From Escherichia phage CMSTMSU, in sequence record MH494197.1: DNA of 64,000 nucleotides, one strand, 5' to 3'. Position numbers and translations under genes: made by a program. This document shows, piece by piece, positions 36,821-53,363 of the stretch (position 1 is the first letter of the stretch; every line of letters starts with the position of its first letter). A model generated the notes under the pieces. That model was not told the DNA's origin and ran no database searches. It was given only the letters and a program-made list of their open reading frames with translations.

Positions 36821-38956
36821 CTAATATTGCACTCACTATCTCAACGAGAACATCACCATGACATGATTTCGGTTTACAGAAACAGCCAAGACGTTTCTGC
36901 TAACTCAAGTAAATCATCAATCTTAACTTCTCCATTAGAAATACGCTCAATAATGTATTCTCTGAACTTTTCGATTGATTCTTCCCTTGTAGCAACAATG
37001 AACTCGGCTTTGGTCTGTTTATCACTGATATGGGTAAATGGGTTTCCATTTAGACCCACGCCCGATATACACATCATACGGTTCTTTATATTTGTTAACC
37101 ACAATTGGCTTTAAATCCATAATGTACCTTATTTGTGTTGTATACGCTCACAACATTCTTGTTGTTTTCCTTTGTTGAATCCACGAGACGATGGGTTCCC
37201 AAATATCCAGAAACACGACGAATCACTGAGATTGTCTTCTCATTGCGATTATCACATACTGGACAATGAAAACCGTGTTTATCTACACTGAACTCACCTT
37301 TATACCCACACTCGTAACACTGGTCAATTGGCTGGTTGATGCCAAAATATGGAATCTTTGTGTAAGCGTAATTGACTAAAGTCTCAAGTGCTTGAATATT
37401 GTTACTTAGGTTGGGTGATTCAACATAACTGATGTTTCCACCATTACTGAGGTAAGCAAATCCCTCTTCGTAACTCCACTTATCAAATGGTGAACTTTCT
37501 ACCCATACTGGTTGATGGAAGGAATTTGTGATGTAATCACGTTTTAGTACTGAAGGGTATTTAGATTCGATGCAACGTGCAAATTTGTAGCAAAGTGACT
37601 CTGCTGGGGTTCCATATAGACTAAAAGCTATATTACTCTCTTTTTGAACTCATCGCATTTTACTTTCATATAATTCAGTACTGACATACAGAACTCCTTA
37701 CTGATAGAACCAGTCAGAATTTCTGAACATTCAACTAAACCAACGTAACCAATACTAATACTAGCATATCCGTTATAAAATAGCTTGTCAATCGTTTCTT
37801 CTGCCCCTAAACGTGAAAGTGCACCTTCCATGAACAAAATCGGATTCTGCTTCGCTTTTGTGCCTTTTAAACGCTCTACGCGGTTCATCTGAGCACGATA
37901 TGCAATATTCATATGCTCGTCTATTTTATCAAAAACTCTCCATCTGAGGCACTTTCAAGAGCAATTAGAGGTAAATTGATAGAAACTACGCCTAAGTTGA
38001 AACGACCGTTATATTGCTCATTTCCATTGGAATCTTCCCATTTTCCCAAAATGAACGACAGCCCATCGGGGTTACTGCTGTACTGCTACTTCCTGTAACT
38101 TTGTGATTTAACGGCACAGAAACGAAGTCTGGGTAGATTCTCTTCGATGCACAACGCATTGCCAACTGTTTCATGTCATAGTTGCAATCATCGCTATTCA
38201 TGTTGATTCCGTCCTGTAAAAAGAAAATTACTTTAGGAAACACAGGAGTAATCTTATCTTTACCTAAACCATTCTCATGTACTTTTAAGTACTGTTCAGT
38301 GATTAATTTGCCAAATTTTGAAGTATTCAGTCCTAAACTAAGAGAAATGAATGCTGCTTGTCCGTTTGTACTAATCATTGAATTTGTCTGGTAAAGTAAG
38401 GTTTGACACCCATCATAGACTTCTTTTCGTAATTCTTCCTCAATGTATTCAGTACTGAGATTATATGCCTTTTGCTTCGCTAATAGCTTATCCCACGACT
38501 TTTGGACGTAAGGTTCAAGACCAACGTCGATATGAGCCAACGATTGACCACCGTACTGGGAACTTGCAACAGCTTGTACAATTTGTGTCAGTACTGTACA
38601 TGCTACACTAAAACTCTTTGGTTCTTCAATTTTGGCACAACCAATGGTAAATCCATTTTTAGCATATCTGGATAGTTAACCAAGCAACAGTTAGTTAATG
38701 GGCTGATATAGTAGTCTAAATCATGAATGTGACCATAACCATCATTATGCCACTGCATTAGCTCCTTTGGAATAACATCTTGTGAATAATGCTTAGATAG
38801 GATACCAGCAAGTAAATCCCTGTGTGTATTGACGCATTTCGCATCTTTGTTTGCATTTTCATTTGTAAGATCAGTATTGCTCTGATTTAGGAAATTTGTT
38901 ACGTCAGTATATAATTTATCTAATTGCATTTTACTTTCCTTGTATTTTGAAATCAT
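36795..38956 (-). CDS. nrdD: anaerobic ribonucleoside-triphosphate reductase (class III), frameshifted into 4 fragments
   Basis: HNDGYGHIHDLD motif in 38603..38956; zinc-ribbon CYECG and Gly-rich C-terminal region; fragments 37992..38540, 37628..37912, 36874..37104. Confidence 0.85.
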
Positions 38957-39062
38957 CTGGGGTGAAGTTATTTAACATCACCAGACACCATTATAGCGTC
39001 AGAACAGGGTATTTCTATTGATCTATATCAAGGAAAGGTCACATTGCTTTTATTTGCACAAA

Positions 39063-39084
39063 TAGAAAAAGCACCTCTAGGTGC
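39063..39084 (-). terminator. hairpin terminator
   Basis: gcacct ctag aggtgc perfect inverted repeat with flanking A/T. Confidence 0.45.
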
Positions 39085-39179
39085 TTTAAAGTACTGCTAA
39101 TATAAAACTGCCCAAATTAGCAGTACTACATTGGTTGGAGCGGCAAAAACATATATGCAGCAATAGCACTGCATCCGAT

Positions 39180-39770
39180 TACAAGTTTAGCTAGTCTCAT
39201 CTGGACTCCATGTAATAGTCACAGTAAATGTGCCTTCTTGGAAACCAAACTCATCTTGTGGGATTTGACCAGCTAATGGGTTAAATCTTGAATCGAATGC
39301 TTCATGTACGTCTCGCTGAATATCATAGAGACTTTCACCATCGTATTCTTTTTAAAGATTTCATTCTGCATTTATACGTAACGACCCTCGTATTCTGTCT
39401 GGATATCCATCAAATAGATCAATGAATTGGTTTAACGCATAAGTACTGATGAATGGATTATTCTTTGCAAGTTCTATGCGTTTTTCAAAATCCATTAATA
39501 TAATCTCTGGTCTACTGAAATTTCCTTTACGTCTATATGTTAGTAAACGCTCGGTATGACCACTGAACTGAAATTCAAAATATGTTGATGCTGCATAATC
39601 ACTTCCATCAGGAACCGGAATTGAAAAATCAACATTGAACTTATTACCAAATGCGAAAAATACCCACCATCTTCGTGTGGTATAGTTTTATCATTTAGAT
39701 GGAAATCTATTTCATCACCTAATATATCAAATATCTTGATACTTAGAGACATAAAATCATCGGCTAACAT
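39180..39770 (-). CDS. hypothetical protein (frameshifted)
   Basis: ORF 39540..39770 plus downstream frame by hand translation. Confidence 0.25.
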
Positions 39771-40578
39771 TTTTTTACCTTATTTTATAGCTCTACAATA
39801 GAAATGAATAATATACGGAAATATAGGATTATCGACGTATGTTGCAAAATTAGCTATGGTAATTTTTTATAGTACGAGTTATGTATGGATATAATGGTTT
39901 GTGGGTCGATTGCTTCTCTATTTGATAGTTCAACAAAACGACCACACTTCATATAAGCCTTACCATAATAATCGTAAGTTATCTCATATTGATCCATTTA
40001 TTCTGGTTCTTTGTTTTATCTACAGTATTGTTTTGTTTAGATCAATTTGTAACGCCATTGCAGCTTCAGTATTTTCTTCATGTGTACCATTGAATTTATA
40101 CCCATTCTTGATGAGATTCACAGTGTAGTACTTATTATAAAGAAATGCCCACGACCATTGCAATTGTACCCACAATCCAAAAAGACACTGCGTTGAGGAT
40201 GAAGTAAATTACAAATGCACCGATGAACGTAATAAAGTCACCACGAAACAATGCAGGAACGGACCAAAGAACAATGTTGTCCATGAGAATCCAAAGAACC
40301 CATCTTTGCGTTGTCCTACATTTTCATTTTTAAAGAAATAGTTTTAGCCATTGTTGACTCCTTACATGTTATGATTTGGTATACAGTACACAAATACTAA
40401 ATTGGAAAAGTGTTCAGTACTGGAATATTTTGCTAAATCTGTTATATGGAAGTAGACATCTTTGAAATTATCATTCTCAAATGTCGTTATTTGTAAACAG
40501 TGTGTGGGTCTGAAAATATAATAATAAAATATATCATCTTCAGCCACAACTGTATGGTTTTGTAGCGTTCAATTTTTT

Positions 40579-40950
40579 TCATGTGTGAATAATTTCTTTG
40601 ACCCCATATTCCATAATTGCCAACGTACAAATCTCACAAGGCTTGGCAGGGACTGGAATACCATCTTTACTTACCCGTGCAATCAACAAAGTATGAACTT
40701 CAGCACGAGAAGCCAGCAAACATGAGATTTCAGCATGAAGAAATTCACCTTGTGGACGACCAGCACGGATTGCAAAACCTTTCTGTACTGGGTGAGTATG
40801 TGTGTAAGAATTAGTACGTGTTGCCAATACACGACCTTTCTTATCTAGTGCACGAGCAATCACACGATAACGTTTGTAGCTCCCACTTGCTCGATTGGTG
40901 GCATCCGTCGCAATTCTTCAATTAGTTTCTCAAGTTTACGATTCATAAGT
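40579..40950 (-). CDS. small cytidine/deoxycytidylate-deaminase-fold zinc enzyme
   Basis: HAEISCL and PCEICTLAI zinc-binding motifs of the CDA superfamily. Confidence 0.5.
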
Positions 40951-41135
40951 CTAAGTCTATACCCTTTTCAAATGATTTCTCTAGAACCCAAAGTTTACAT
41001 TCTTCACTCTCCAAATGCATCTTTGCCTCTTTCTGTTGTTCTATTGTACAAGACTTTATAAATTCACGCAAGGCTTCTATTGTACTTTTTATATTTTTAT
41101 GTCTTCCAGAATTGTTTCTTTGGCTTCAGCATCAA

Positions 41136-41459
41136 TTACAGATGAACTCCACCCGTGACGTTCTTCCCAAACTGTTTTGCTGGATTGTAAATTGATGATG
41201 TAGAAATGACTGCATGGATCTTATTAAACGTATCGTCTGCTTCTTGTTGGGTGTAATCACCATAAGTGTTTAGCACATTTTTGTATAGTTCATCGATTGC
41301 CTCATCATAAGTATCACCACCGCAATCTAACTCATAATCATGTGCTTGTACCCATTCATCATCTTGCTCAATGTACATAGGTGAGATGAATTCTACCCAA
41401 AATTGTGTCTTTGTATTCAGAGCTTTAAATGATTCAATGCGGTTTGTGATTGGACACAC
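41136..41459 (-). CDS. hypothetical protein
   Basis: 107 aa ORF. Confidence 0.3.
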   Translation of the reverse strand: MCPITNRIESFKALNTKTQFWVEFISPMYIEQDDEWVQAHDYELDCGGDTYDEAIDELYKNVLNTYGDYTQQEADDTFNKIHAVISTSSIYNPAKQFGKNVTGGVHL

Positions 41460-41540
41460 ATCATGTGGTTCGATATCAATCCTTGGGGAACCATATCTCT
41501 GTTGATGAATTTAGGATGACCCAAAATCCACCAGTACTTT

Positions 41541-41956
41541 TCAGATGTAGTCATAGTAATCTCCAATTAAAAGTACTGCCACTATAACAGTACTGATATT
41601 AAATGTAACGTTTCTTTTATAATCATACCCTACTGCTTTGTAAAAGTCAAACAAAGAAGCATGTTCAAATGTAGGTAATAGATCATATGGGTGCTGATAG
41701 TTCGCAATACCAACAATAGCCATCATTGATTCAGCCGTTCTGGAATTTTCACTATCCCATTCATCTAAACGCCAAAGTGAGCAAAGTACCTCGCGTTCAT
41801 GTTGCTTACCCAGAAAGAATTCAGCTTCACGGTCACGAAATGCACCTGCACTGATAGTACTTTTGTACCAGTCTTCTTCACCATAAGCTGGCATACGGAT
41901 AATATGTTTTCTTGAGCTTCACCAAAGCGGTGAAGAAATGCCACATAATCACTCAT
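41541..41956 (-). CDS. hypothetical protein
   Basis: Overlapping fragments 41541..41894 and 41765..41956. Confidence 0.25.
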
Positions 41957-42117
41957 AATTTATAACCCATTACAGGTTTGGTATGATCCGGTTCGTAAGA
42001 CTTTTCAGTACTGAACCCTCTGAAATTACCACGACGGCTTCGGACAAGCCATCCCTTCTACACCGTGCTTACCCTGAACCTTTCCGCAGTTTTTGCATTT
42101 GTATCCAATAACTTCTT

Positions 42118-42351
42118 TCATTGTGCATCCTTTGGAATAGTGTTAAGGCGTGTACGGTTTACAATCTTCCTGCACATGAGATTAAGATCTTGCCCATGAC
42201 GCATCTCATGGCAAGCATACAATGTGCCATCATAGTTAAGTTTAGTCAAATTCTGGCGAATGAACTCTGCATCAGCCTCCTGAACTTTAGGTGCACAGCC
42301 TGTTACTAACATCATGAGTGCTGAAACAATTGCAATAGAAATAAATTTCAT
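42118..42351 (-). CDS. small lipoprotein
   Basis: Signal peptide with lipobox LVTGC. Confidence 0.4.
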   Translation of the reverse strand: MKFISIAIVSALMMLVTGCAPKVQEADAEFIRQNLTKLNYDGTLYACHEMRHGQDLNLMCRKIVNRTRLNTIPKDAQ

Positions 42352-42592
42352 AATTTAATCACCTATACATAAGTACTCGATTGATGGTTTACCATTAACT
42401 AACACAATACCAGTGTGAGTTAATACACAGTTCGTTGGTGCTTCTTCAAATACTGATACGTAAATGTATGAACCATTACTAACTGAACAAGATAATACCA
42501 TAAGAACGGCGATTAGTACAAGTAAAATTTTCATATGAACCTACTTTTTGATTTATGTAATGCAATTTGTACTCGCGTAATGAACTCACGCT

Positions 42593-43186
42593 CTACTTCA
42601 TCTGAATTAACACCATCATATTGTGTTTTGAATAGTTCCATAGCTTTGATAGCCATCTGAACTGAAAGATCAGCAATACTTTCAGTACTGGTACTTTCAA
42701 ATACATTTTGAGGCTTAGTTCACCATCATCAATACATTCTTTTGGTTTGTTGATTTCTGGTACTTGGATGTATCGCAATGCTTTGTATTCTGCTTTGGTC
42801 AGATTCCCAGTCCATCTTGGTTCATTGAACAAGTCATGCATTGTAATGCCAGCTTCACCCATTAGGTGTACTAACTCTTCATTTCGGCGAATATGCTTTT
42901 CTTCATCTTTGAAATTTTTGTAAGTGTAAGCACAACGCATGATAGCCAAACGTACTTCACCACTTTTAGTAATTGTATACGTATGAATTGCATTATCGTA
43001 GTCACTTTCCCATTGTTGACCCGCATATTCGTACCAAAGGTCATTTGTCTCCCAACGGAGCATTTTACCTTCTAGTAGCTCGTCAATCATTTTAGCCATG
43101 TTACCATGATATTCACAACTGGTAATATTAAATCCACCATTGTACTTTGCAAGGTATAGAATCTTTTCTTGTGATACATTTTTCAT
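42593..43186 (-). CDS. hypothetical protein
   Basis: 197 aa ORF. Confidence 0.3.
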   Translation of the reverse strand: MKNVSQEKILYLAKYNGGFNITSCEYHGNMAKMIDELLEGKMLRWETNDLWYEYAGQQWESDYDNAIHTYTITKSGEVRLAIMRCAYTYKNFKDEEKHIRRNEELVHLMGEAGITMHDLFNEPRWTGNLTKAEYKALRYIQVPEINKPKECIDDGELSLKMYLKVPVLKVLLIFQFRWLSKLWNYSKHNMMVLIQMK

Positions 43187-43524
43187 TACATGTAATCCTT
43201 GATGTATTTTAGCAGTTTAGATTTCTCTTCGGTACTTAATGATTTCTTGTTCATCAAGTGTTTCATTTCTTGACGTTCAATTTCTTCACATATTTTAGAT
43301 TCAGCTTCAATTCGTGCATGGTATTCTTCGTCAGTTTCTTCTCTGGTCCAAATTACATTGTATCCATGAAAACCGCCGTAACCACCGTCTGGTGTAAGAC
43401 TAATGTGACCGTTATATTCAGCACGATACTTATTAAGAGTGTCAATAAAGGTATCAATGCCACACGGTTCAATTTCAATATAACCAATCACTACAGTAAC
43501 TTCAATTTTGTTCATAAAGTTCAC
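43186..43524 (-). CDS. hypothetical protein
   Basis: 112 aa ORF. Confidence 0.3.
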   Translation of the reverse strand: MNFMNKIEVTVVIGYIEIEPCGIDTFIDTLNKYRAEYNGHISLTPDGGYGGFHGYNVIWTREETDEEYHARIEAESKICEEIERQEMKHLMNKKSLSTEEKSKLLKYIKDYM

Positions 43525-43911
43525 CTATAAAATTAGGAGCATTAGCTCCTTTGTATTGATGTTTACGTTTTGTACTGTATTTCCAGCCAGTACTGTGTCT
43601 TGTTCTGATATCGTCCCAATACGATGGTAATGAACGCATCTTACGTCTTCCACGTATTTCAGGTTCCCCTCATCCTTCAGTACTGCACAAGCCATACGAC
43701 GCTCTTGTTGGGTCTTAGGACGTTTGTATCGGGAGTGGTTATGTTTGTACATATACGAACGCTTGTGTCGCCATTCAGTGTCACGAGCATTTCGTTTATG
43801 CTCCCAGTACTCATTATAGAGTATCATGTATTCACCCATAAGTAAATCAGGAGATACAAGTAATCCTTTTTCAGTACAAAGATAATAACCTACGAACTTT
43901 TCTGGATACAT
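43525..43911 (-). CDS. hypothetical protein
   Basis: 128 aa ORF. Confidence 0.3.
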   Translation of the reverse strand: MYPEKFVGYYLCTEKGLLVSPDLLMGEYMILYNEYWEHKRNARDTEWRHKRSYMYKHNHSRYKRPKTQQERRMACAVLKDEGNLKYVEDVRCVHYHRIGTISEQDTVLAGNTVQNVNINTKELMLLIL

Positions 43912-44187
43912 TTCGTAATAGAAACGGTTCTTCCAAAATGTTTCACGATTCTTTTGTTGAATTCAGCTAAATCGAATTTCATCTTACTGTGGAAACGGTC
44001 TATACCATCATGTTCCGCAATGTACTCTAACAGATTATCAATAATCTCAACTTTACCTGAATCATGGTACAACGTAAATGTTTGGTCAAAAACATATATT
44101 TCTCCTTTAAGTTAAACTAACCTAATGGAATGTCATTCTTCCTTTACTACATGTTCTCATGGTTTAATCCTTTTGTCAATATCTAGA

Positions 44188-44212
44188 AAGAAAAATCCCT
44201 GCCAAAAGACAG
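44188..44212 (-). terminator. hairpin terminator
   Basis: atccctg ccaaaaga cagggat inverted repeat. Confidence 0.4.
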
Positions 44213-44569
44213 GGATGAAAAACTGAAATAACACATGGAGTTCTTTTAAATTAATAAAAGTATTATTATTCTTATGAAAGTATTTATCATGAACTCCAGT
44301 TTATTGCTTCAAATGAATCAATAACCTTTTTGTGCTACTAGCTCACGGTATTGAGCACGAGTTAGAACACCTTGTTTACGTAGAGCTTGAAGACCTGTTA
44401 GGGTTTCTGCTTTACGTAGTTCGAAAATACGTTGTTCTTTAGATTGAATAACTTTAACTTTCTTAACTTTTGCTACTGGTTCTTTTTCTTAGGTTGCTTT
44501 GCCATGAGTATTTCTCCTTTGTTGTTAACAATATTATTATATCATGTATGGGACGAATGTCCCACATTA

Positions 44570-45387
44570 TTACATATTTTCTTCAGCAAATTCTGCCAGT
44601 GGTGAACGAACAACACCTTCTAGTTCGATTACACGACAACCGTCCCAGTTCTTGAACTTCTCGGTAACATAAGTTAGACCGCTGTTTACTGGACTAATGA
44701 ACTTAGAGTCAATCTGACTCAAGTTACCCATAATAACCACTTTACAGTTCATTCCTGCACGAGTCAAGATTGTTTTGCCTGAGCAGGTGTGATGTTCTGG
44801 AATTCATCAACTACTAGGATAGTATTTGTGAAAGAACGACCACGAACGAAGTTTAGTGCTTTGAACTGGATAACATTGCGTTTCATGATTTCTTCGATAC
44901 TGCCTTGTGGGTTAGCATCATCTTTGTGTAGGAATTCCAACGCATCAATTGCTGCACCACAGAAAGGAATCACTTTCTCTGCTTCAGATCCGGTAAGAAA
45001 CCAATGTCTTCGAATTGGGAATCTTGTGTTTTGGAGAAGATGATACGGTCGTATTTTTCTTCTCTAGTACTAGCTCAGTGCAGTTGCAATAGTGATTAGT
45101 GTTTTACCAGTACCTGCTGAACCTAACAGTACTGTTAGATGAACATCAGGATCTAAAATACTGTTGATTGCTAGTGCTTGCTGAATATTCTTAGCCTTGA
45201 TATCCCACACTTTAGCACGTAAAGCAACTGATTGTCCAACGTCTTGGAATACAAGAATATCTTCTGGTGTTAAAGTACCATCATCTTCTTCAATTGCAGA
45301 TTGACCTTCGTACACAAATAGAACATCAGCATTATCATATAGGTAATCACCGATGCAAATATTTTGTGGCATGATATGTTCAATCAA
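44570..45387 (-). CDS. phoH: PhoH-like ATPase (frameshifted into 3 fragments)
   Basis: Walker A GSAGTGKT in 45070..45387; Walker B VVDEFQN in 44764..44973; C-terminal fragment 44570..44767. Confidence 0.8.
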
Positions 45388-46010
45388 GCTTTTGGAATGT
45401 AGTGGTACAAACGACGACCAACTTGTTCAGACTGAATAGATACATCAGTCAGATTACTATACACATCCCAGAAATGTAGATCAAGGTGATGTTGACCAAT
45501 GTGAATCAAATCACTATCACCAATCACGATATCATGACGGTAATCTTGAACTTCCACCCCGTAGCTTAGAGCCTTGATACGCATATTGATATCACGGGTA
45601 ACCAGTACTGAATCAGTTGCTAATGCTACTAAAATGATTTTATCATCTGGTACTGTGCTTTTTAGAAGAGTTTGAACTTTCTCTTCGTTACCAGCAGTAC
45701 GAATTAGTGCTTCCGCTTCTTCGCTTGTAATAACAAACAATTTGCTTTCAGGACTCATATTAGTATGAACATCAGCAATATTAACACCAGTACTACTAAT
45801 TTCTTCATGTGATGCATCAGAAAGGATAGCTTCAATGTTACGGATTGCAACACGAGCATCACGGGAAACATCCACATTACGACTTTTGATTGAATCCAAT
45901 TCTTCAAGTACTGTGAACGGTAGAATGATAGCTGCTCCATCAAAAGCAATGGTAGCATTTGGATCAGATAGTAGTACGTTTGTGTCAATTGTATATTTTT
46001 CATAAAACAT
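45384..46010 (-). CDS. PIN-domain protein immediately upstream of PhoH ATPase (YlaK-like arrangement)
   Basis: N-terminal IDTNVLLSDP...ILPFTVLEELD typical of PIN; ORF boundaries overlap by 4 nt. Confidence 0.6.
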   Translation of the reverse strand: MFYEKYTIDTNVLLSDPNATIAFDGAAIILPFTVLEELDSIKSRNVDVSRDARVAIRNIEAILSDASHEEISSTGVNIADVHTNMSPESKLFVITSEEAEALIRTAGNEEKVQTLLKSTVPDDKIILVALATDSVLVTRDINMRIKALSYGVEVQDYRHDIVIGDSDLIHIGQHHLDLHFWDVYSNLTDVSIQSEQVGRRLYHYIPKA

Positions 46011-46082
46011 CCTTGAGTTATGAGTACATCCTTGTACTCGACTAATGGTTAGTGACTCGAATATTACATGCTCGGTTCGTAT

Positions 46083-46364
46083 TCAACATAACATCTTGAA
46101 CCACGAGCCTTTTCCTCCCAGCATTCCGTAAACTAGTTGACCAATTGATACTGGATCTCTTGATAACCCATTACGAACTTCACCAGTACTGGTTTTATAA
46201 GTAAATGAGCATTTATTTTCATTACATTGACCTAATCCTGTTACAGTCGCTGTATTGTAATGAATATTGTAACGTTTAGTGTTCTCATGATATGAACTGA
46301 ACCATAGAACACCTATACCTAACAGTGTTGTGCAAATAAGACTCTTGATATGTGTTGAAATCAT
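46083..46364 (-). CDS. small membrane protein
   Basis: N-terminal hydrophobic segment LICTTLLGIGVLWF. Confidence 0.3.
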   Translation of the reverse strand: MISTHIKSLICTTLLGIGVLWFSSYHENTKRYNIHYNTATVTGLGQCNENKCSFTYKTSTGEVRNGLSRDPVSIGQLVYGMLGGKGSWFKMLC

Positions 46365-46833
46365 AGTGCATTAAATCCATTAGTTAAGTAAGTTTCAATA
46401 TTAACTTTCCTACTGGATTACTACTATGTACATAGTATTTAAATGGTTCTTTAATATTATGCTCAAACATATAATCAATTAGAAATTTGGCAAAAGTGTA
46501 TCCAGTTTTCTCATCTGTACTCAAGTCACCCAAGTCATGGTCAAATGAGACAAATGCTGGAATTCCATTTTGATTACGTATTCACATGCACTTTCGTAGT
46601 CACGACACAATACCATCTCTTGGTCAGGATAATATTTTGATAATCACGAATATCATCCAAGAACATTGAGTACGACATTTTAAACTCCTATAGATAGCTG
46701 ATTAGTAAGTTTTCTTTTTGTACAAGATACTCTAATTCTTGTTTCGCAGTTCCGATGAAGTTCTGTGTCATAAGATTATTATATCCTGCTTCTCGATTTT
46801 GTCCCTTCGAATAACGAGAGATGTGACATAAAT

Positions 46834-47238
46834 TTACACCAGCCACCTCTGCACTAGCATGTTTGCCATATGCATAATTATCACGAAGTTTTTAAGTTCA
46901 GCATAAGTCATTTCATAACTATAGCTATGTGAGTGACCCTCTGGAAACAATTCAAGTGATTTTAATGGAGACAGGCGACTTTTGTCAATGATATAGTTCA
47001 TTTCTTCTTGAACTTCACGCTGTAACGCATCTTCTAATGACTTATCAGTACTTTCAACTGTTCCACCACATGCACCCAACAATCCATCCCAACGCACTTG
47101 TAGGAGTACTAAGTTAACCACTGGGATATCATTTAGTTCATAACCAGCGTATGGGGTACATTCTTTTGCATAAAAGAAACAGAATACAAAATTTGCACGT
47201 TTCCCCATTTGCCCCAGTGGTACTTCCGCTTTACTCAT
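46834..47238 (-). CDS. Nudix hydrolase
   Basis: Nudix box GACGGTVESTDKSLEDALQREVQEEM. Confidence 0.65.
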   Translation of the reverse strand: MSKAEVPLGQMGKRANFVFCFFYAKECTPYAGYELNDIPVVNLVLLQVRWDGLLGACGGTVESTDKSLEDALQREVQEEMNYIIDKSRLSPLKSLELFPEGHSHSYSYEMTYAELKNFVIIMHMANMLVQRWLV

Positions 47239-47307
47239 CGCATTCGTTCCTTAATTATAGTTTCAACCTGTGGAATTGCTTTCGTCGCAGGTTTGATGAC
47301 CTTCTCA

Positions 47308-47900
47308 TTAAAAGAAAATCATTATCATTTTTCGGATGTTAACATTTACACTATAGCATGGAAGTGCACCAGCTAGTCTGGACCATACCAGTACTGTATC
47401 ACTACTTCCAATAACTACAACTGTATCATTTTCTGTGAGACTTTTCAACACTTCATTTCGTTCTTCATAAATGGGGAGACGTACCCCATCAACGTAGCGA
47501 TGATACTCACCAATCATCACTACATTTGGTTTTGCAAAAACATCAGCTTTAGGAATATATGGTTCATAACCACAATTAATGACATTGTAATCATCAGTAT
47601 TAATAGAAAAGTTCTCAATTACTTCACATAAATTGCCGTGTAGTTTGAGTTCGGTTCCACCAATTCTAGTATATAGATCATCCATATTAGAAGTCATGTG
47701 TAAAAACAATCACCATACAAATCTTCTAATGATTTAATAAAGTAATGCATTTCATTAGGATGACATTCACCTAATTTTACACGCAATGTATTATAAAATG
47801 AATGAACTACATGATACTTAGAACTAAGTCGTGCAATGTTACAAACATCATTAATTTTGAAATTGTCCCACAACCCATCATCAAAGCGGAATGGTTCCAT
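47308..47900 (-). CDS. hypothetical protein (two fragments)
   Basis: ORFs 47694..47900 and 47308..47709. Confidence 0.25.
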
Positions 47901-48214
47901 CCCGCTCTCAACTGAAAGACCTGCCCTGAAATTATAAGTAATCTTTTGTTCCCAGCATTTTGTATAAATTTATCTGATATCACATTTACTCCTTATATAA
48001 AAAGTATCAAGTTTAATACTAAAAATACAATGATAGCAATATGATAGACATACATCCACTTATTGTGTCCATGTTTATTACCATTCCTGAATTCTCGGTA
48101 TAAACATTTAGTGTGATTGTATAACACCACACAAATAAACACAACTATGAAACAAAAATCCACTCGTAAATTATGTATGCCATCAGATACACTCTCTCTT
48201 TATAATTATTATTC

Positions 48215-48804
48215 TCAGTATTTCAAAATATCAAACTCTGGACTAACACTTGTTACATTATCACTAACAATTTTGAAAATAGACTCAACACGTTCATGTA
48301 ACTGAACATTGGTTTCTTCTTGAACTTCAATATACGCTGACATGGATGCAATTGCATGATAAGTCCCACTTCCGACAGCAGTAATTTGTGTTTTAGGTTG
48401 CAGTACTGAAAAGTCTTCTTGAACTTCATAAATCGTATGATTATGAAGAATAATGAACTGACCACCACCAACATCTTGTGATGCATCACGAGCACCCATT
48501 CATCTTTAAACATTTGACGAATGATAGGAATAACTTTCAGTACTAGATACTGTGAAAAGGTTTCCTGCAACTTGTTCTGGTAGAGTTAGGTTGTAATTCA
48601 ACAACTGTCCCATGCGGAACGAGGTAGTATACCCAACGCCATTACTTCTTTAGTGCGAGAAAGACCATCCTCATTGAGTTTAATGAACTCTTTCTCAAAC
48701 ACTTTAGGCTCAGTTTGAACTGCTTTAGTGAAACCATTGCTTCCTAATTTATCACCAGCGATGAAGGAAGATGTGCCATTTGTGTGAGCGATAATACAAG
48801 TCAT
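48215..48804 (-). CDS. HslV/proteasome-like Ntn peptidase (tentative, frameshifted)
   Basis: N-terminal MTCIIAHTNGTSSFIAGDKLGS and later ITAVGSGTYHAIAS resemble HslV T...G..IAGD and GSG motifs. Confidence 0.4.
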
Positions 48805-49150
48805 GAAATAACTCCTTGTGCAAAAGTGCCGTATACAACCAGTATATCAGCAACCCTAGTGTAAGTAAACATGCTCCATAAGAAATTGATAGAACATAGT
48901 AAATTCCTGCTTCGAACTTGGATGCAAATTTGTGTGTACTGGAATCCATAAAACCACGTTTGTAGTCTTTATAGATGAAACATGTTAAAACTAATGTAAT
49001 GCAATATACTATAGTTGTTGCATAAAAACAAGAGATGTTAAGTTTTGTAAATTTGTCATAGTTTATACACTCTAGTGTATGTGAACTTATAACAAAGGAT
49101 GTACCACTTTATCATCCTCTTATTATAATATTATTATTTTGTATCTAATA

Positions 49151-49522
49151 CTAATGAATGATACTACCTAATTCGAGCAACTGATCTGGTGTAAGTCTCA
49201 CAACTTCATTACCACGAACCTTACTAACCTCCACTAACAATTCTGGAGGAATACCATTCGCTGCATATAACGCAAATAGAACACCAACCTTAGTTGATAG
49301 CTGTTCAGCAAAAATAGTCATTTGGCGAACTGATATGTATGTGTCATCACTATTTCGTGCTTTACTTTCGATTGACACATTATGTAGACCTAGAATTGAG
49401 TCCTTCATCATGTATCTGTTTTCTATATTAGCACTAAAGAATGCGATAGTGCAAGAAGAATTACAATATCTTTCAACAATAATTGTTAAATTGTTATCAT
49501 TGACAAAATTTCCTAGTGCCAC
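49151..49522 (-). CDS. hypothetical protein
   Basis: 123 aa ORF. Confidence 0.3.
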   Translation of the reverse strand: MALGNFVNDNNLTIIVERYCNSSCTIAFFSANIENRYMMKDSILGLHNVSIESKARNSDDTYISVRQMTIFAEQLSTKVGVLFALYAANGIPPELLVEVSKVRGNEVVRLTPDQLLELGSIIH

Positions 49523-50034
49523 TCCGCATCAAAATCACCACCGTGACGTAATGATGATAGTGTCAAATGGGTGTGTTTCTCTAAAACCATCAAACGGTTT
49601 ACAGTATTTTCAGTTAAAGTTGAAATGAACTGAACTGTCTGTTTAGATTCATCATATCTAATGATACTTTTCTTTCAACACCTGCACTTGCAGGAAAGTT
49701 AATTAAGAAAATAATAATAATAGATTGGATGATTTCTTTACATAATCGTACCACTGGTTAACCCTCTTAGTTGATTGTTGATTACATAAATAATATTATA
49801 GGAAGATTTAACTTAAGTCAAATTGTTTTTATATCACTTCACAAATTCCCTCACAGAATCACCCGCCTTTTTACCTTCTTTTGAATGATTATATCACACT
49901 AATGTATAATGTCTATGCTTTTGTCAACAAATAACGTGGTAGTACTGAACTCGTTGTTGGTTCTAAGAGTTTTCCTGAAATTCAAACAAGTTGTGTACTA
50001 ACAAAGAAAAAGGAGCCTTATGGCTCTTTTTATT

Positions 50035-50295
50035 CTACGTATTAAGTTTCTGACAAATCATGTCAGCTTCAACACGGTCTTTATAATAAATGGTAAAACC
50101 AAATTTACCAGTTACTTTATACTCTTTACAAGTTAAACAATTTACAATGTAGTACTTGTTGTTTTGTGCTGAAAATCGTACTTCATGATTACGCATCACT
50201 GGTGGAGTAGTATTATCATTTAATACCATCATCACTAAGAGTACAAGAATCACAACTGCAAATGGAATACCTAAAATCAAGAAAGTCAAAGTCAC
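50035..50295 (-). CDS. small membrane protein
   Basis: Hydrophobic N-terminus LILGIPFAVVILVLLVMMV. Confidence 0.3.
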   Translation of the reverse strand: MTLTFLILGIPFAVVILVLLVMMVLNDNTTPPVMRNHEVRFSAQNNKYYIVNCLTCKEYKVTGKFGFTIYYKDRVEADMICQKLNT

Positions 50296-50317
50296 AACCC
50301 CTTATCATAAATGCAAT

Positions 50318-50767
50318 TTACAATAATCCCAGCATCTTCCAGTACTTTAATAGCTTCTGGTGGAGTGCGAGGATAACTTTGTGATAAATCACGCGAGCAA
50401 TACCACTTCCCGCGATCAACTTAGAACAAGTATAGCATGGTTGCAGCGTTGTGTAAAGTGTTGCTCCCTGACGTTCGGTAGGTGAACTGTATAACAATGC
50501 ATTCATTTCAGCATGGATTTCATGGATATTACTCCATTCATGGTGTTCATGCTTTGCGTCATCGCTAACCCAGTCTTGGAAACGTCCACCATTAACTAAG
50601 TGCTCATTAGCGTCACAGCAGTTAGGTTGTTTAGATGGAGTGCCATTATAACCAGTACTCAATACTCGGTTATTTTTAACAATAACACAACCAACTTTCT
50701 GTGAAATGCATTTACTCTCTTCAGCCACGACTTCGGCTATCTTCAACCACGTCAAGTGTTTCATCAT
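50318..50767 (-). CDS. cd: deoxycytidylate (dCMP) deaminase
   Basis: VLSTGYNGTP, HAEMNAL and PCYTCSKLI zinc-binding motifs. Confidence 0.85.
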   Translation of the reverse strand: MMKHLTWLKIAEVVAEESKCISQKVGCVIVKNNRVLSTGYNGTPSKQPNCCDANEHLVNGGRFQDWVSDDAKHEHHEWSNIHEIHAEMNALLYSSPTERQGATLYTTLQPCYTCSKLIAGSGIARVIYHKVILALHQKLLKYWKMLGLL

Positions 50768-51246
50768 ATACTCCTAGGGATTGTAATTTGGTTTTACAGT
50801 TCGAATGTATTTTAAGAACACGAAGGTAGTTTAGCACATCTGATTCTTCAATGTCAAATGGTTTCGCTGCATAAACGTCCCATGCTCCCATTAATTCTGT
50901 ACAGAACTTGATATCACCCGAACCCAGCAACTTGTCACGGAATTGTTTAAACTCGATTTCTTCATCGGATAATGAAAACCCAAATCCATAAAGCACATAC
51001 CACCAGCACTGAAGCATGACCCAGATGATGTACCAATTAAAATATCATCCATCCCATATAAGCCGTAAAAATATTGGAGTACCAAGTACTAAGTTTACTT
51101 CGGTGATGATATTTAAGAACATTCTTCTTGATATTTACATCTAATGAATTAGCTGTTGATATCACTTTTTGGTTAAAATAATAGTTTTGTTCAAATTACT
51201 CAACCATACTTTAGTATCAGTTGGGCTAAGAGCAGTGTATTTCATA

Positions 51247-51612
51247 TTAATCCTCTAAATTCCATTCATCAACCATAGTTGAGCATAATTCCATGTGTCG
51301 GAAATATTTCTCATTAAGTGAATATGGACTCTTATAAAATTGTCTTACATCAGTGAATATATCATAGTTTCTATATATAAATGACATATTTTTATTCATG
51401 AATTCTATAATCTTCCATAACTTTTCTGTATCGTTTTGTATAGTTTCTGCACTCAATCCCGTCAATTTCATTAGACGCTTGATTTTAAAGCCAGACTCTA
51501 TTGACGTATTGTTATGCTTGGTTAAGTAACTATAGCCAATGGAACTATATATTAGTTCAATACTATCAGTACTGGTTATTGTTCCTAGAAATGATTTTAA
51601 ATTTCTATTCAA
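51247..51612 (-). CDS. hypothetical protein
   Basis: 121 aa ORF. Confidence 0.3.
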   Translation of the reverse strand: MNRNLKSFLGTITSTDSIELIYSSIGYSYLTKHNNTSIESGFKIKRLMKLTGLSAETIQNDTEKLWKIIEFMNKNMSFIYRNYDIFTDVRQFYKSPYSLNEKYFRHMELCSTMVDEWNLED

Positions 51613-51881
51613 CCAATACCATTTTTGTTCTTGTTATAGCAAGAATACCACTTTTAACTATAGCTATTGCCTCTGAATTTAAACTTTCGGCAAATTCATC
51701 AATTAAAACATGTGATTGTAAAATAAATCACTTTGATCTTCAGATAATTTATATTGCTGCATATCCACCTACCCTATTAACAATTACACCTTGGGTATTT
51801 ACCTTGTATGGATCAATTTTTGATCAATAATTTTTGATATACAGCAAATAAAATGGGAATCATTAAAGATTCCCTAAGTAA

Positions 51882-52330
51882 TTATTTCTGGAATGGAGTG
51901 TACTGGTACTGCTCACAATCAGATACAGTTAGTACACCTTCATCATAACCGTACTGGAGAATAAGATCAAATGCTTTATCAACCATAGCTACAACGTCTT
52001 TGTAACGAACGATGGTGTGTGCCTGTTTCTCAACTGCTTTCATAATACCCATCAGCATCCAGCGGCCTTCATCAGTGTGAAGTTTAGCAAAACGAGGACG
52101 TTTAGTTGCTGCCATAATGTCAGTCCATTCTGCTTTAAACACTGATGGACGTTTAGGAATATCATACAGAGTTGTTGGGAATGTTACGTTGTTTTTCTTC
52201 ATAGCTTCAGCTTGTGCAGCACGATAACCTTGACGGAATAGTGGGTGCTGTGATTTTAGCTGTTCATTGTTAAAAACTACTTTGTTTTAAACGCGTCATA
52301 ACCTTCTTTGTATTGTGCATTAGACATATT
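51882..52330 (-). CDS. hypothetical protein (frameshifted near N-terminus)
   Basis: ORF 51882..52202 plus upstream frame. Confidence 0.25.
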
Positions 52331-52635
52331 ATTCTTTCCCTCGTCAGTACTGATGAATTTTTTATCTGAGAATGTGCCGTGTTCTTGACGCATAGCTTCT
52401 GCGTGTTGAACTGCGTTAATTGGATTAATGTTCTTTTAATAAGAACTTCTTGCATTAATTCGAGAACAATAGAAAAACCATTGAGTACTCGTTCTGCCTC
52501 GTCAACACCTTTCAATTCAATAGCCACTGCACTAATCTGATCTAATGCGGTATTAATAAACTCTGAATCATCTAACACATCATTGACTTCAGTATTATTA
52601 CGTACAAGAACTTTCATATAATCTCCAGAAATAAG

Positions 52636-52662
52636 ATGCCCCAAATGAGGCATCAAATGAAA
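52636..52662 (-). terminator. hairpin terminator downstream of clpP
   Basis: gatgcc ccaaatga ggcatc inverted repeat. Confidence 0.4.
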
Positions 52663-52668
52663 TTCAAA

Positions 52669-53363
52669 TTAGACCCACTCTTCCACGCCACCGCGACGTT
52701 TGACGAGATACTTACCTTCTTCGTTGCGTGGACCAAGGATGATACCATCAATGAAACCATGTTCACCGTATTCGAGTGCTTCTTCAGCGTTCAACCACAA
52801 GTCACGGTCTGCATCTTTCAGTAGTTGTTCGTGCGATACACCAACTGCTTCAGCAATTTCTTTCGTCAATAGTGTGTTCAATGCGTCAGAGTGTTTCAAA
52901 GAAATCTTCTGATCGGTAATCAGACCCTGAGTACCGGAACTCACTTGGTGACACATGAAGTAAGAACGCTTACCACCTAGACGGAAACCTTTAGTTCCAA
53001 CTACTGATTGTGTATAGCAACCCATTGATGCTGCATAACCCATTACTACTGTACGGATAGGAGATACACAAGACTTAGCAATGTCAGCGATACCCAAACC
53101 TGCGTGTACTGAACCACCGGAGAACTAATGTAGAAGGTAATTGGTTCAGAACCCTGAGAATCCAACCACACCAATTGTTGCTTGATGATATGTGCCATTT
53201 GGTCATTGAAGTCAGTATCAAGGAAAATGATACGGTCTTGCATCATACGAGATGCTAGGTCATAAGTACGTTCTGCACCATTAACTTTTTCAACTACATA
53301 AGGAATAGAAATGTTGCGAACTTCACCACCAGCATAACCACCAAAATTGAATTGTTCAACCAT
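52669..53363 (-). CDS. clpP: ClpP-family serine protease (one frameshift)
   Basis: RIIFLDTDFNDQMAHIIKQQL, GYAASMGCYT (Ser), MCHQ (His), DADRDLWLNAEEALEYG; fragments 53046..53363 and 52669..53097. Confidence 0.85.

Follow-up and report, generated by a model that had tools for sequence, protein, structure and literature searches.

The closest described systems to the gene considered here include the phage and cellular deoxycytidine monophosphate (dCMP) deaminases, such as T4 Cd (1VQ2), the S-TIM5 enzyme (4P9C), the S. mutans enzyme (2HVV), and human DCTD (2W4L). A canonical dCMP deaminase deaminates dCMP under allosteric control by deoxycytidine triphosphate (dCTP) and deoxythymidine triphosphate (dTTP). 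We analyzed a 64,000-nucleotide (nt) stretch of Escherichia phage CMSTMSU (MH494197.1), hereafter called the window, to which all coordinates refer unless another record or locus is named. Besides a gene for a T4-type enzyme of this kind, the window carries a much smaller gene of the cytidine deaminase (CDA) fold. The small gene encodes an uncharacterized, phage-specific minimal deaminase, and the labels dCMP deaminase, TadA, and cytidine deaminase are all inappropriate for it.

Compared with the dCMP deaminases, the small protein lacks helix 4, the parallel strand 5, and the Tyr/Arg segment after strand 4, as well as the second zinc site and the allosteric insert. Its isoelectric point (pI) is 9.8 versus about 6.9, it fails the ComEB equivalog model, and it shares its genome with a genuine T4-type enzyme. 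The viral dCTP and bifunctional deaminases (PBCV-1 bi-DCD, 7FH4; Dcd of PBS1, DSS3_VP1, and PhiR1-37) are members of IPR016473 in which the helix-4 architecture is complete, whereas the family of the small protein lies outside IPR016473 and lacks that architecture, and no deoxyuridine-containing DNA is implied. Relative to TadA/ADAT2 (2B3J, 1Z3A, and 6VPC), the small protein is without helix 4, strand 5, and the C-terminal helices, which in TadA lie beyond the core and contact the anticodon loop (PMC3239186); furthermore, it does not match NF008113, and A34 tRNAs are rare in the tRNA arrays associated with its family. It also differs from the tetrameric cytidine deaminases and blasticidin-S deaminase (3DMO, 1UX1, and 2Z3G) in having HAE instead of CAE and PCEICTL instead of PCxxCRQ, in lacking the NxEN ribose motif, strand 5, and thus the second strand of the hairpin, and in scoring only 12.8 bits on TIGR01354 (cutoff, 113.65). 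The archaeal tRNA C8 deaminase CDAT8 (3G8Q) carries a THUMP RNA-binding domain and acts on tRNAs whose genes encode C8, whereas the phage tRNAs beside the small-deaminase family have a normal U8 (92%). In polymorphic toxins, the deaminase is the C-terminal toxin domain of a delivery protein, and an immunity gene lies next to the toxin gene. Unlike such deaminases of the MafB19, DddA, and SsdA types, the small protein stands alone at 122 residues, with no neighbor conserved across lineages.

The small gene and its catalytic codons are located as follows.

40579..40946, minus strand: small CDA-fold deaminase gene, ATG at 40946, 122 residues after one G is restored
40882..40884, minus strand: G-run, GGG here and GGGG in vB_Ec-M-J and other relatives; the 1-nt deletion splits the small deaminase gene
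40737-40729, minus strand: codons of H71-A72-E73, zinc ligand and catalytic glutamate
40641-40627, minus strand: codons of P103-C104-E-I-C107, with the two cysteine zinc ligands

The first-pass annotation had located both CDA-fold genes correctly on the minus strand, and the motifs that it quoted for the small protein are exact (HAEISCL from residue 71 and PCEICTLAI from residue 103). Neither gene is an intact open reading frame (ORF) in the window, as one homopolymer deletion frameshifts each. In the small gene the frameshift falls 62 nt into the gene, and the ORF table lists only a 94-residue GTG ORF (40579-40863) from which the 28-codon head is cut off. The repaired protein is 100% identical to the proteins of Ecwhy_1 and fEgEco12 and 99% identical to EcMJ_225 of vB_Ec-M-J; its orthologs also include 121Q gp490, phAPEC6 gp330c, and CBB_135.

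Over the 11.5 kb around the deaminases, where every gene lies on the minus strand, identity is 98% with Escherichia phage vB_Ec-M-J and about 84% with 121Q and PBECO4. All of these phages are Asteriusvirus jumbo myoviruses of the Rak2-like group, and the window is Asteriusvirus-like (121Q/Rak2-type). A BLAST alignment with vB_Ec-M-J over 14.5 kb (window 38400-53100) contains 79 gap openings. Since all 79 are deletions on the window side, most of them in homopolymer runs, these indels are uncorrected homopolymer sequencing errors or assembly artefacts and not biology. Because of these deletions, genes that are intact in relatives, e.g., a 1440-nt PIN-PhoH gene, appear in the window as strings of short ORFs; the PIN-PhoH gene (about 44570-46010) is split into four. 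The same deletion pattern probably extends over the whole window, which warns against a plain ORF-based reading and calls for frameshift-tolerant methods. We rejected a programmed frameshift in the small gene, because its deletion is one among the 79.

An AlphaFold model of the small protein built with 21 homologs had a mean predicted local distance difference test (pLDDT) value of 90.7. The model runs through helix 1, strands 1 and 2, an extra helix (residues 53 to 61), the HAE helix, strand 3, the PCxxC helix, and strand 4, which covers residues 118 to 121 of 122 and ends the protein; helix 4 and strand 5 are absent. The inserted helix carries the family motif N-S-Y-x-x-T-H-P-x-Q. What had been described as a short basic N-terminal extension corresponds in this model to the regular first helix of the deaminase fold (residues 3 to 14) and a loop. 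In a longer family member, P0066 (126 residues; pLDDT, 96.9), about 10 added residues form an antiparallel strand 4-5 hairpin, again without helix 4. Such a hairpin is not the arrangement of the dCMP deaminases and TadA, which fall into the other division of the fold.

With 26.2 bits against PF00383 (cutoff, 25), the small protein belongs to the CDA/dCMP-deaminase zinc-binding superfamily. It matched no NCBIfam model at an E value of ≤0.1, the ComEB model TIGR02571 included, nor did it match the TadA model NF008113, and its sequence did not significantly match that of any protein with a solved structure. Both the helix-4 architecture of a canonical dCMP deaminase and the TadA-type helices past the core are missing, the protein ending at strand 4. 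Against MafB19-deam (PF14437) it scored 13.3 bits (cutoff, 27), outside the polymorphic-toxin deaminases. A scan of 70 diverse relatives produced only matches below threshold, namely, to the deaminase domain of an anti-phage dCTP deaminase (49 relatives), the tetrameric cytidine deaminase (28), ComEB (23), and TadA (13), the best TadA match (1.9e-5) lying well under the 150-bit cutoff. A profile search against the PDB was headed by the S-TIM5 dCMP deaminase (4e-10), a Mycoplasma tRNA deaminase (6e-9), and the dCMP deaminases of S. mutans (2e-7) and T4 (1.6e-6), and a cytidine deaminase came far down the ranking (3e-3). On the basis of the hairpin architecture and this ranking, the family is a separate branch with mixed affinities. 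Curated models and architecture together led us to reject an identity as an ordinary cytidine deaminase, TadA, or ComEB. Thus, the earlier description of a small atypical CDA-fold protein was borne out, and the protein is not placed among the free-nucleoside cytidine deaminases.

We grouped the small protein and its relatives into a "phage minimal basic deaminase family (phiKZ gp260-like)," which was defined in this analysis and is not a curated family. Its members are stand-alone proteins of 100 to 140 residues with a pI above 8, the motif N-x-Y-x-K/x-T/S-H-P-x-Q after strand 2, L-H-A-E-I, an R at the end of strand 3, and A-K-P-C-x-I-C. The small protein has these features (pI 9.84; net charge, +9), matches family representatives down to an E value of 4e-51, and is 34% identical to phiKZ gp260. 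Among 1.8 billion cluster representatives, a profile search detected 4497 relatives at an E value of <1e-3 and 1072 at <1e-10, the best 150 of which all measure 96 to 166 residues; the best 120 of 1157 relatives from a second search are single-domain proteins of 100 to 152 residues on metagenomic or phage contigs of up to about 390 kb. Domain fusion was rejected as a functional clue, as there was none among these best 150 and best 120 relatives. IMG/VR holds at least 537 family loci, and 195 records of cultured phages contain a member (Rak2-like, phiKZ-like, and Aeromonas phages, cyanomyoviruses, Salicola SCTP-2, and Limnohabitans DC31). One unannotated homolog (37% identity and 86% coverage) was found in S-T4 (NC_048049.1, 11297-11617; locus L119, 6001-6321) between the genes for DNA endonuclease V and a 2-oxoglutarate-Fe(II) oxygenase, where the deposited annotation had missed it. 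About half of the listed relatives, like the window protein, end 15 to 18 residues past PCxxC (the short form), and the rest carry the hairpin extension (the long form).

Across 70 diverse members, H71, E73, P103, C104, and C107 are invariant, and N46, H52, P53, Q55, and R91 are at least 90% conserved; A59 is also among the invariant or nearly invariant residues. The invariance of the catalytic residues indicates that the catalytic machinery is under selection, so that the proteins should be active enzymes. We infer from these motifs that the small protein is an active zinc-dependent hydrolytic deaminase, in which His71, Cys104, and Cys107 would hold the zinc and Glu73 would shuttle the proton. 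Basicity is likewise uniform in the family: among 198 relatives the median pI is 9.63 and 98% exceed 8, compared with medians of 6.85 in a set of 30 canonical dCMP deaminases from phages and of 7.9 in neighboring ORFs of similar size. Enzymes that act on small anionic metabolites are seldom so uniformly basic, whereas nucleic-acid binders typically are, which suggests that the family binds nucleic acids.

The small protein belongs to a stand-alone "minimal" branch of the cytidine deaminase superfamily that is restricted to phages, and the Rak2-type version is the short form of this branch. It has lost the loop that follows strand 4, as well as helix 4, strand 5, and the helices at the C terminus, to which dCMP deaminases owe their 5'-phosphate grip and TadA its anticodon-loop contacts. 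It would not duplicate the canonical dCMP deaminase 10 kb away; its substrate is probably a base in a polyanionic molecule, most likely RNA. We put the probability that the protein acts on a polynucleotide, with tRNA of the phage or the host as the leading candidate, at roughly 0.4. Any choice of substrate class, of base (C or A), and of the position of deamination is speculative. The more specific proposal, that the short-form proteins are phage RNA-editing deaminases working on phage or host tRNA, e.g., in the anticodon loop, is possible but doubtful.

The gene context of the short form accords with a tRNA substrate. Short-form relatives are 44 to 51% identical to the window protein and have the same architecture. 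We examined a set of 80 viral-contig loci, all encoding the short form, whose proteins are 46 to 63% identical to P0053 (itself 44% identical to the window protein), and called tRNA genes with ARAGORN. A tRNA gene was found within 6 kb in half of the loci (40 of 80), always on the same strand as the deaminase gene; the distance was ≤50 nt in 14 loci and ≤500 nt in 24, and tRNA genes lay on both sides in 17. In locus L081, for instance, the deaminase gene (2075-2380) is enclosed by tRNA-Pro (1972-2048) and tRNA-Cys (2387-2461). After dereplication at 70% identity, 21 of 40 short-form clusters still had a tRNA gene, 9 of them within 50 nt, and tRNA density was highest beside the deaminase gene. 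Controls gave lower frequencies: tRNA genes occurred in 3 of 30 canonical dCMP deaminase loci (Fisher p=1.3e-4) and in 10 of 80 Hsp20 loci from similar phages (0.74 tRNAs per 10 kb versus 2.96 for the short form; p=4e-7). Even the long-form members of the family had any tRNA gene in only 15 of 78 loci, none within 500 nt (0.41 per 10 kb).

Several side observations concern these arrays. ARAGORN predicted permuted transfer-messenger RNA genes (tags, e.g., ANDEVFALAA and ANDSVYALAA) in or beside phage tRNA arrays on viral contigs, namely, in loci L025, L028, L030, L034, L036, L056, L061, L070, L073, L084, and L111. Besides, nine phage tRNAs have the T-loop ATCGTTA or ATCGTAA (loci L031, L038, L046, L052, L077, and L082; e.g., L038, 7326-7398), in which A54/T58 replace the universal T54/A58, an apparent swap of the reverse-Hoogsteen pair.

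A number of results weigh against a polynucleotide substrate. The entire 64-kb window contains no tRNA gene, and none was found near the small-deaminase gene in CBB, phiKZ, phiA019, S-T4, ACG-2014f, or SCTP-2 (for SCTP-2 according to the record annotation alone). Within the arrays, unrelated small ORFs are equally close to tRNAs (rank test p=0.23). A34 tRNAs, the substrate of TadA, make up only 6 of 220 unique neighboring tRNAs (tRNA-Arg(ACG) in five loci and tRNA-Ser(ACT) in one), and on this count we rejected TadA-like A34 editing as a general role; the host always has an A34 tRNA-Arg(ACG). Nor do the array tRNAs show systematic defects at universal positions (U8 in 92%, U33 in 99%, and normal G53, T-loops, and D-loop GG). 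Repair editing of the CDAT8 type is unlikely, because no encoded defects need C-to-U or A-to-I correction, and it was rejected as well. Among proteins of known structure, dCMP deaminases come nearest in sequence, and a high pI suggests nucleic-acid binding without proving it. Some family members have neighbors in nucleotide metabolism: one long-form lineage adjoins a class II ribonucleotide reductase (17 loci), DC31 carries a canonical dCMP deaminase and ThyX near the small gene, and NT5C, dUTPase (dUTPase_2), and MazG occur beside other members. Moreover, our search of the full-text literature found no experimental or biochemical characterization of any family member, and nothing on the function of phiKZ gp260, a Rak2-like "second deaminase," or deaminase genes in phage tRNA clusters. 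In favor of the polynucleotide reading, in contrast, is a setting of RNA repair genes: in a second long-form lineage (8 to 9 loci), a T4-type RNA ligase 1 gene flanks the deaminase gene on one side and a PNKP phosphatase gene on the other, and a similar RNA ligase context was seen additionally near other members. Expression of phiKZ gp260, for which a study of early infection mapped a primary transcription start site (PMC8244752), speaks for that reading too. Thus, the suggestion in the first-pass annotation of a tRNA- or nucleic-acid-editing enzyme is upheld in part: the uniformly basic family and the short-form tRNA arrays, which exceed the controls, favor it indirectly, whereas no tRNA gene lies near the gene here and a role in the nucleotide pool is nearly as likely.

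According to that alternative, the small protein is a second deaminase of free pyrimidine nucleotides or nucleosides, i.e., of dCMP, deoxycytidine diphosphate (dCDP), dCTP, cytidine monophosphate (CMP), or (deoxy)cytidine. It would be an unregulated, minimal enzyme that supplements the allosteric T4-type enzyme in feeding deoxyuridine monophosphate (dUMP) to thymidylate synthase in an AT-rich phage. Annotation in relatives agrees with this: both deaminase genes of vB_Ec-M-J are labeled "dCMP deaminase," so that the pairing is already on record, and the paper on phage CBB lists "two CMP/dCMP deaminases" (PMC5259590). The dCMP deaminases at the head of the profile-to-PDB ranking, the spacing from the N to HAE, which resembles that of dCMP deaminases, the weak matches of 49 of 70 members to the anti-phage dCTP deaminase domain, and the nucleotide-metabolism neighbors listed above all point the same way. 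The small gene coexists with a canonical dCMP deaminase in CMSTMSU, CBB (CBB_110 and CBB_135), and the metagenomic loci L037 and L045, and in DC31 it lies two genes from one. In phiKZ, too, gp260 may be redundant, with a putative dCTP deaminase of the dUTPase fold. This co-occurrence means that it is not simply the phage's only route to dUMP, and an enzyme for dCMP would be redundant with the canonical one in at least four lineages. However, zinc-dependent phage enzymes of the "dCMP deaminase family" differ in phosphate specificity and can be specific for dCTP or dCDP, as is the dCTP-specific Dcd of PBS1 and PhiR1-37 (PMC12697855), so that a nucleotide substrate other than dCMP would also explain the coexistence. 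What a nucleotide substrate fits less well is the loss of the post-strand-4 segment, helix 4, and strand 5, all of which the phage's own dCMP deaminase keeps (with "SYPR"), together with the failure on the ComEB model and a family pI of 9.6 versus 6.85 for phage dCMP deaminases. It also leaves the embedding of the short form in tRNA arrays unexplained.

It is improbable that the protein is instead a deaminase of cytosine in single- or double-stranded DNA that, like the small toxin deaminases of bacteria, would be directed at host DNA or a competing element early in infection. The protein does combine a very small size with basic charge and a stand-alone form, the Pfam threshold of MafB19-deam is exceeded in some family members (e.g., P0066 with 44.5 bits), and the primary transcription start site of the phiKZ homolog, gp260, was mapped in a study of early infection (PMC8244752). 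Nevertheless, the likeness to toxin deaminases is much weaker than that to CDA, dCMP deaminase, and TadA, the window protein itself stays below the MafB19-deam cutoff, no conserved immunity-like partner adjoins the gene, and an untargeted enzyme would threaten the phage's own unmodified DNA. Still less probable is a nonenzymatic or accessory subunit that partners the canonical deaminase or host TadA, as ADAT3 does with ADAT2. A truncated sheet might need a partner, and the two genes do co-occur, but the family alignments show no variation in the catalytic Glu or in any of the zinc ligands, and a canonical deaminase is nearby in only 2 of 80 family loci. That the gene is a dead, frameshifted pseudogene in CMSTMSU is the least credible explanation, since the frameshift which the window does carry there is of the same kind as the other window-side deletions, which also break the PhoH and canonical deaminase genes, and the repaired protein is identical to that of two other isolates.

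If the small protein and the other short-form proteins do edit tRNA, they would be the smallest natural nucleic-acid deaminases (about 100 to 120 residues with a four-stranded core) and a new class of phage tRNA-modifying enzyme. Such editing might alter decoding, contribute to the maturation of phage tRNAs, or provide an escape from host anticodon nucleases. With editing of tRNA or other RNA, base deamination would join phage tRNAs, CCA-adding enzymes, RNA ligases, and synthetases among the means by which phages manage translation. A natural deaminase core of about 100 residues would also be of biotechnological interest as a very compact scaffold for base editors. If it is only a nucleotide deaminase, it would still define the minimal catalytic unit of the fold and correct the picture of pyrimidine metabolism in jumbo phages. 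In either case, thousands of phage genomes label this gene by default "dCMP deaminase," "TadA," or "hypothetical," while it fits none of the curated families.

The second deaminase gene of the window and the two genes that flank the small gene are as follows.

50292..50767, minus strand: canonical T4-Cd-type dCMP deaminase gene, ATG at 50767, 158 residues after one A is restored
50378..50380, minus strand: A-run, AAA here and AAAA in relatives; the 1-nt deletion garbles the C terminus of the canonical deaminase
50515-50507, minus strand: HAE codons of the canonical deaminase
50440-50426, minus strand: PCYTC codons of the canonical deaminase
40943..41554, minus strand: upstream gene, homolog of EcMJ_224/CBB_134, about 204 residues, no known domain
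40362..40582, minus strand: downstream gene, homolog of EcMJ_226, 73 residues, no known domain

The gene at 50292-50767 is a textbook T4-type dCMP deaminase, as had been proposed. Its product scored 78.7 bits on PF00383 (from profile position 3), 4e-62 on PHROG 174, and 5e-19 on ComEB (TIGR02571), is 40 to 44% identical to the Cd proteins of T-even phages, and keeps the "SYPR" segment after strand 4, helix 4, and strand 5. Repair of the frameshift corrects the extent first given for the gene, 50318-50767. The annotation of vB_Ec-M-J starts the gene at an internal GTG, 13 codons short (window 50729-50767; L001, 11856-12299). The ATG at window 50767, which overlaps the gene upstream, is the better start, because the Pfam match begins at residue 3 of the longer form.

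Both neighbors of the small gene overlap it by ATGA: the stop of the upstream gene, which is broken into several frames in the window, overlaps the small deaminase start, and the ATG of the downstream gene overlaps the small deaminase stop. The upstream overlap suggests that the two genes may be translationally coupled. The upstream gene is conserved among Rak2-like phages only and has no Pfam domain. A conserved operon partner was rejected by neighbor clustering, in which no neighbor family occurred in more than 8 of 64 short-form loci. As for a role in the virion, the main text of the paper on 62 virion proteins of phAPEC6 identified by mass spectrometry does not mention gp330c, which is a weak negative. 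In CBB- and GAP32-type Rak2-like phages, a tyrosyl-tRNA synthetase gene lies two genes upstream of the small deaminase (CBB locus L121, 17748-20363), and a tRNA-His guanylyltransferase gene follows 15 kb downstream of the deaminase; in the Asteriusvirus window, small hypothetical genes take the place of the synthetase gene.

Other genes of the region concern tRNA, nucleotides, and nicotinamide adenine dinucleotide (NAD). The relative OQ718158.1 has an annotated tRNA nucleotidyltransferase (CCA-adding enzyme; 121995-123110, equivalent to about 12 to 14 kb of the window), as well as thymidine kinase, deoxynucleoside monophosphate kinase, and anaerobic ribonucleotide reductase genes within the window-equivalent stretch. 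The phage thus invests both in tRNA maintenance and in nucleotide supply. In the window, a NUDIX hydrolase gene and a Sir2-like gene adjoin each other at about 46830-47710 (homologs EcMJ_212/211), 6 kb from the small deaminase. In other phages, the NAD salvage genes NAMPT and NMNAT/NUDIX recur 1 to 15 kb from family members (CBB_113, CBB_115, and CBB_120; loci L002 and L122-L125), and these surroundings may represent a neighborhood of NAD-related counter-defense or auxiliary metabolism.

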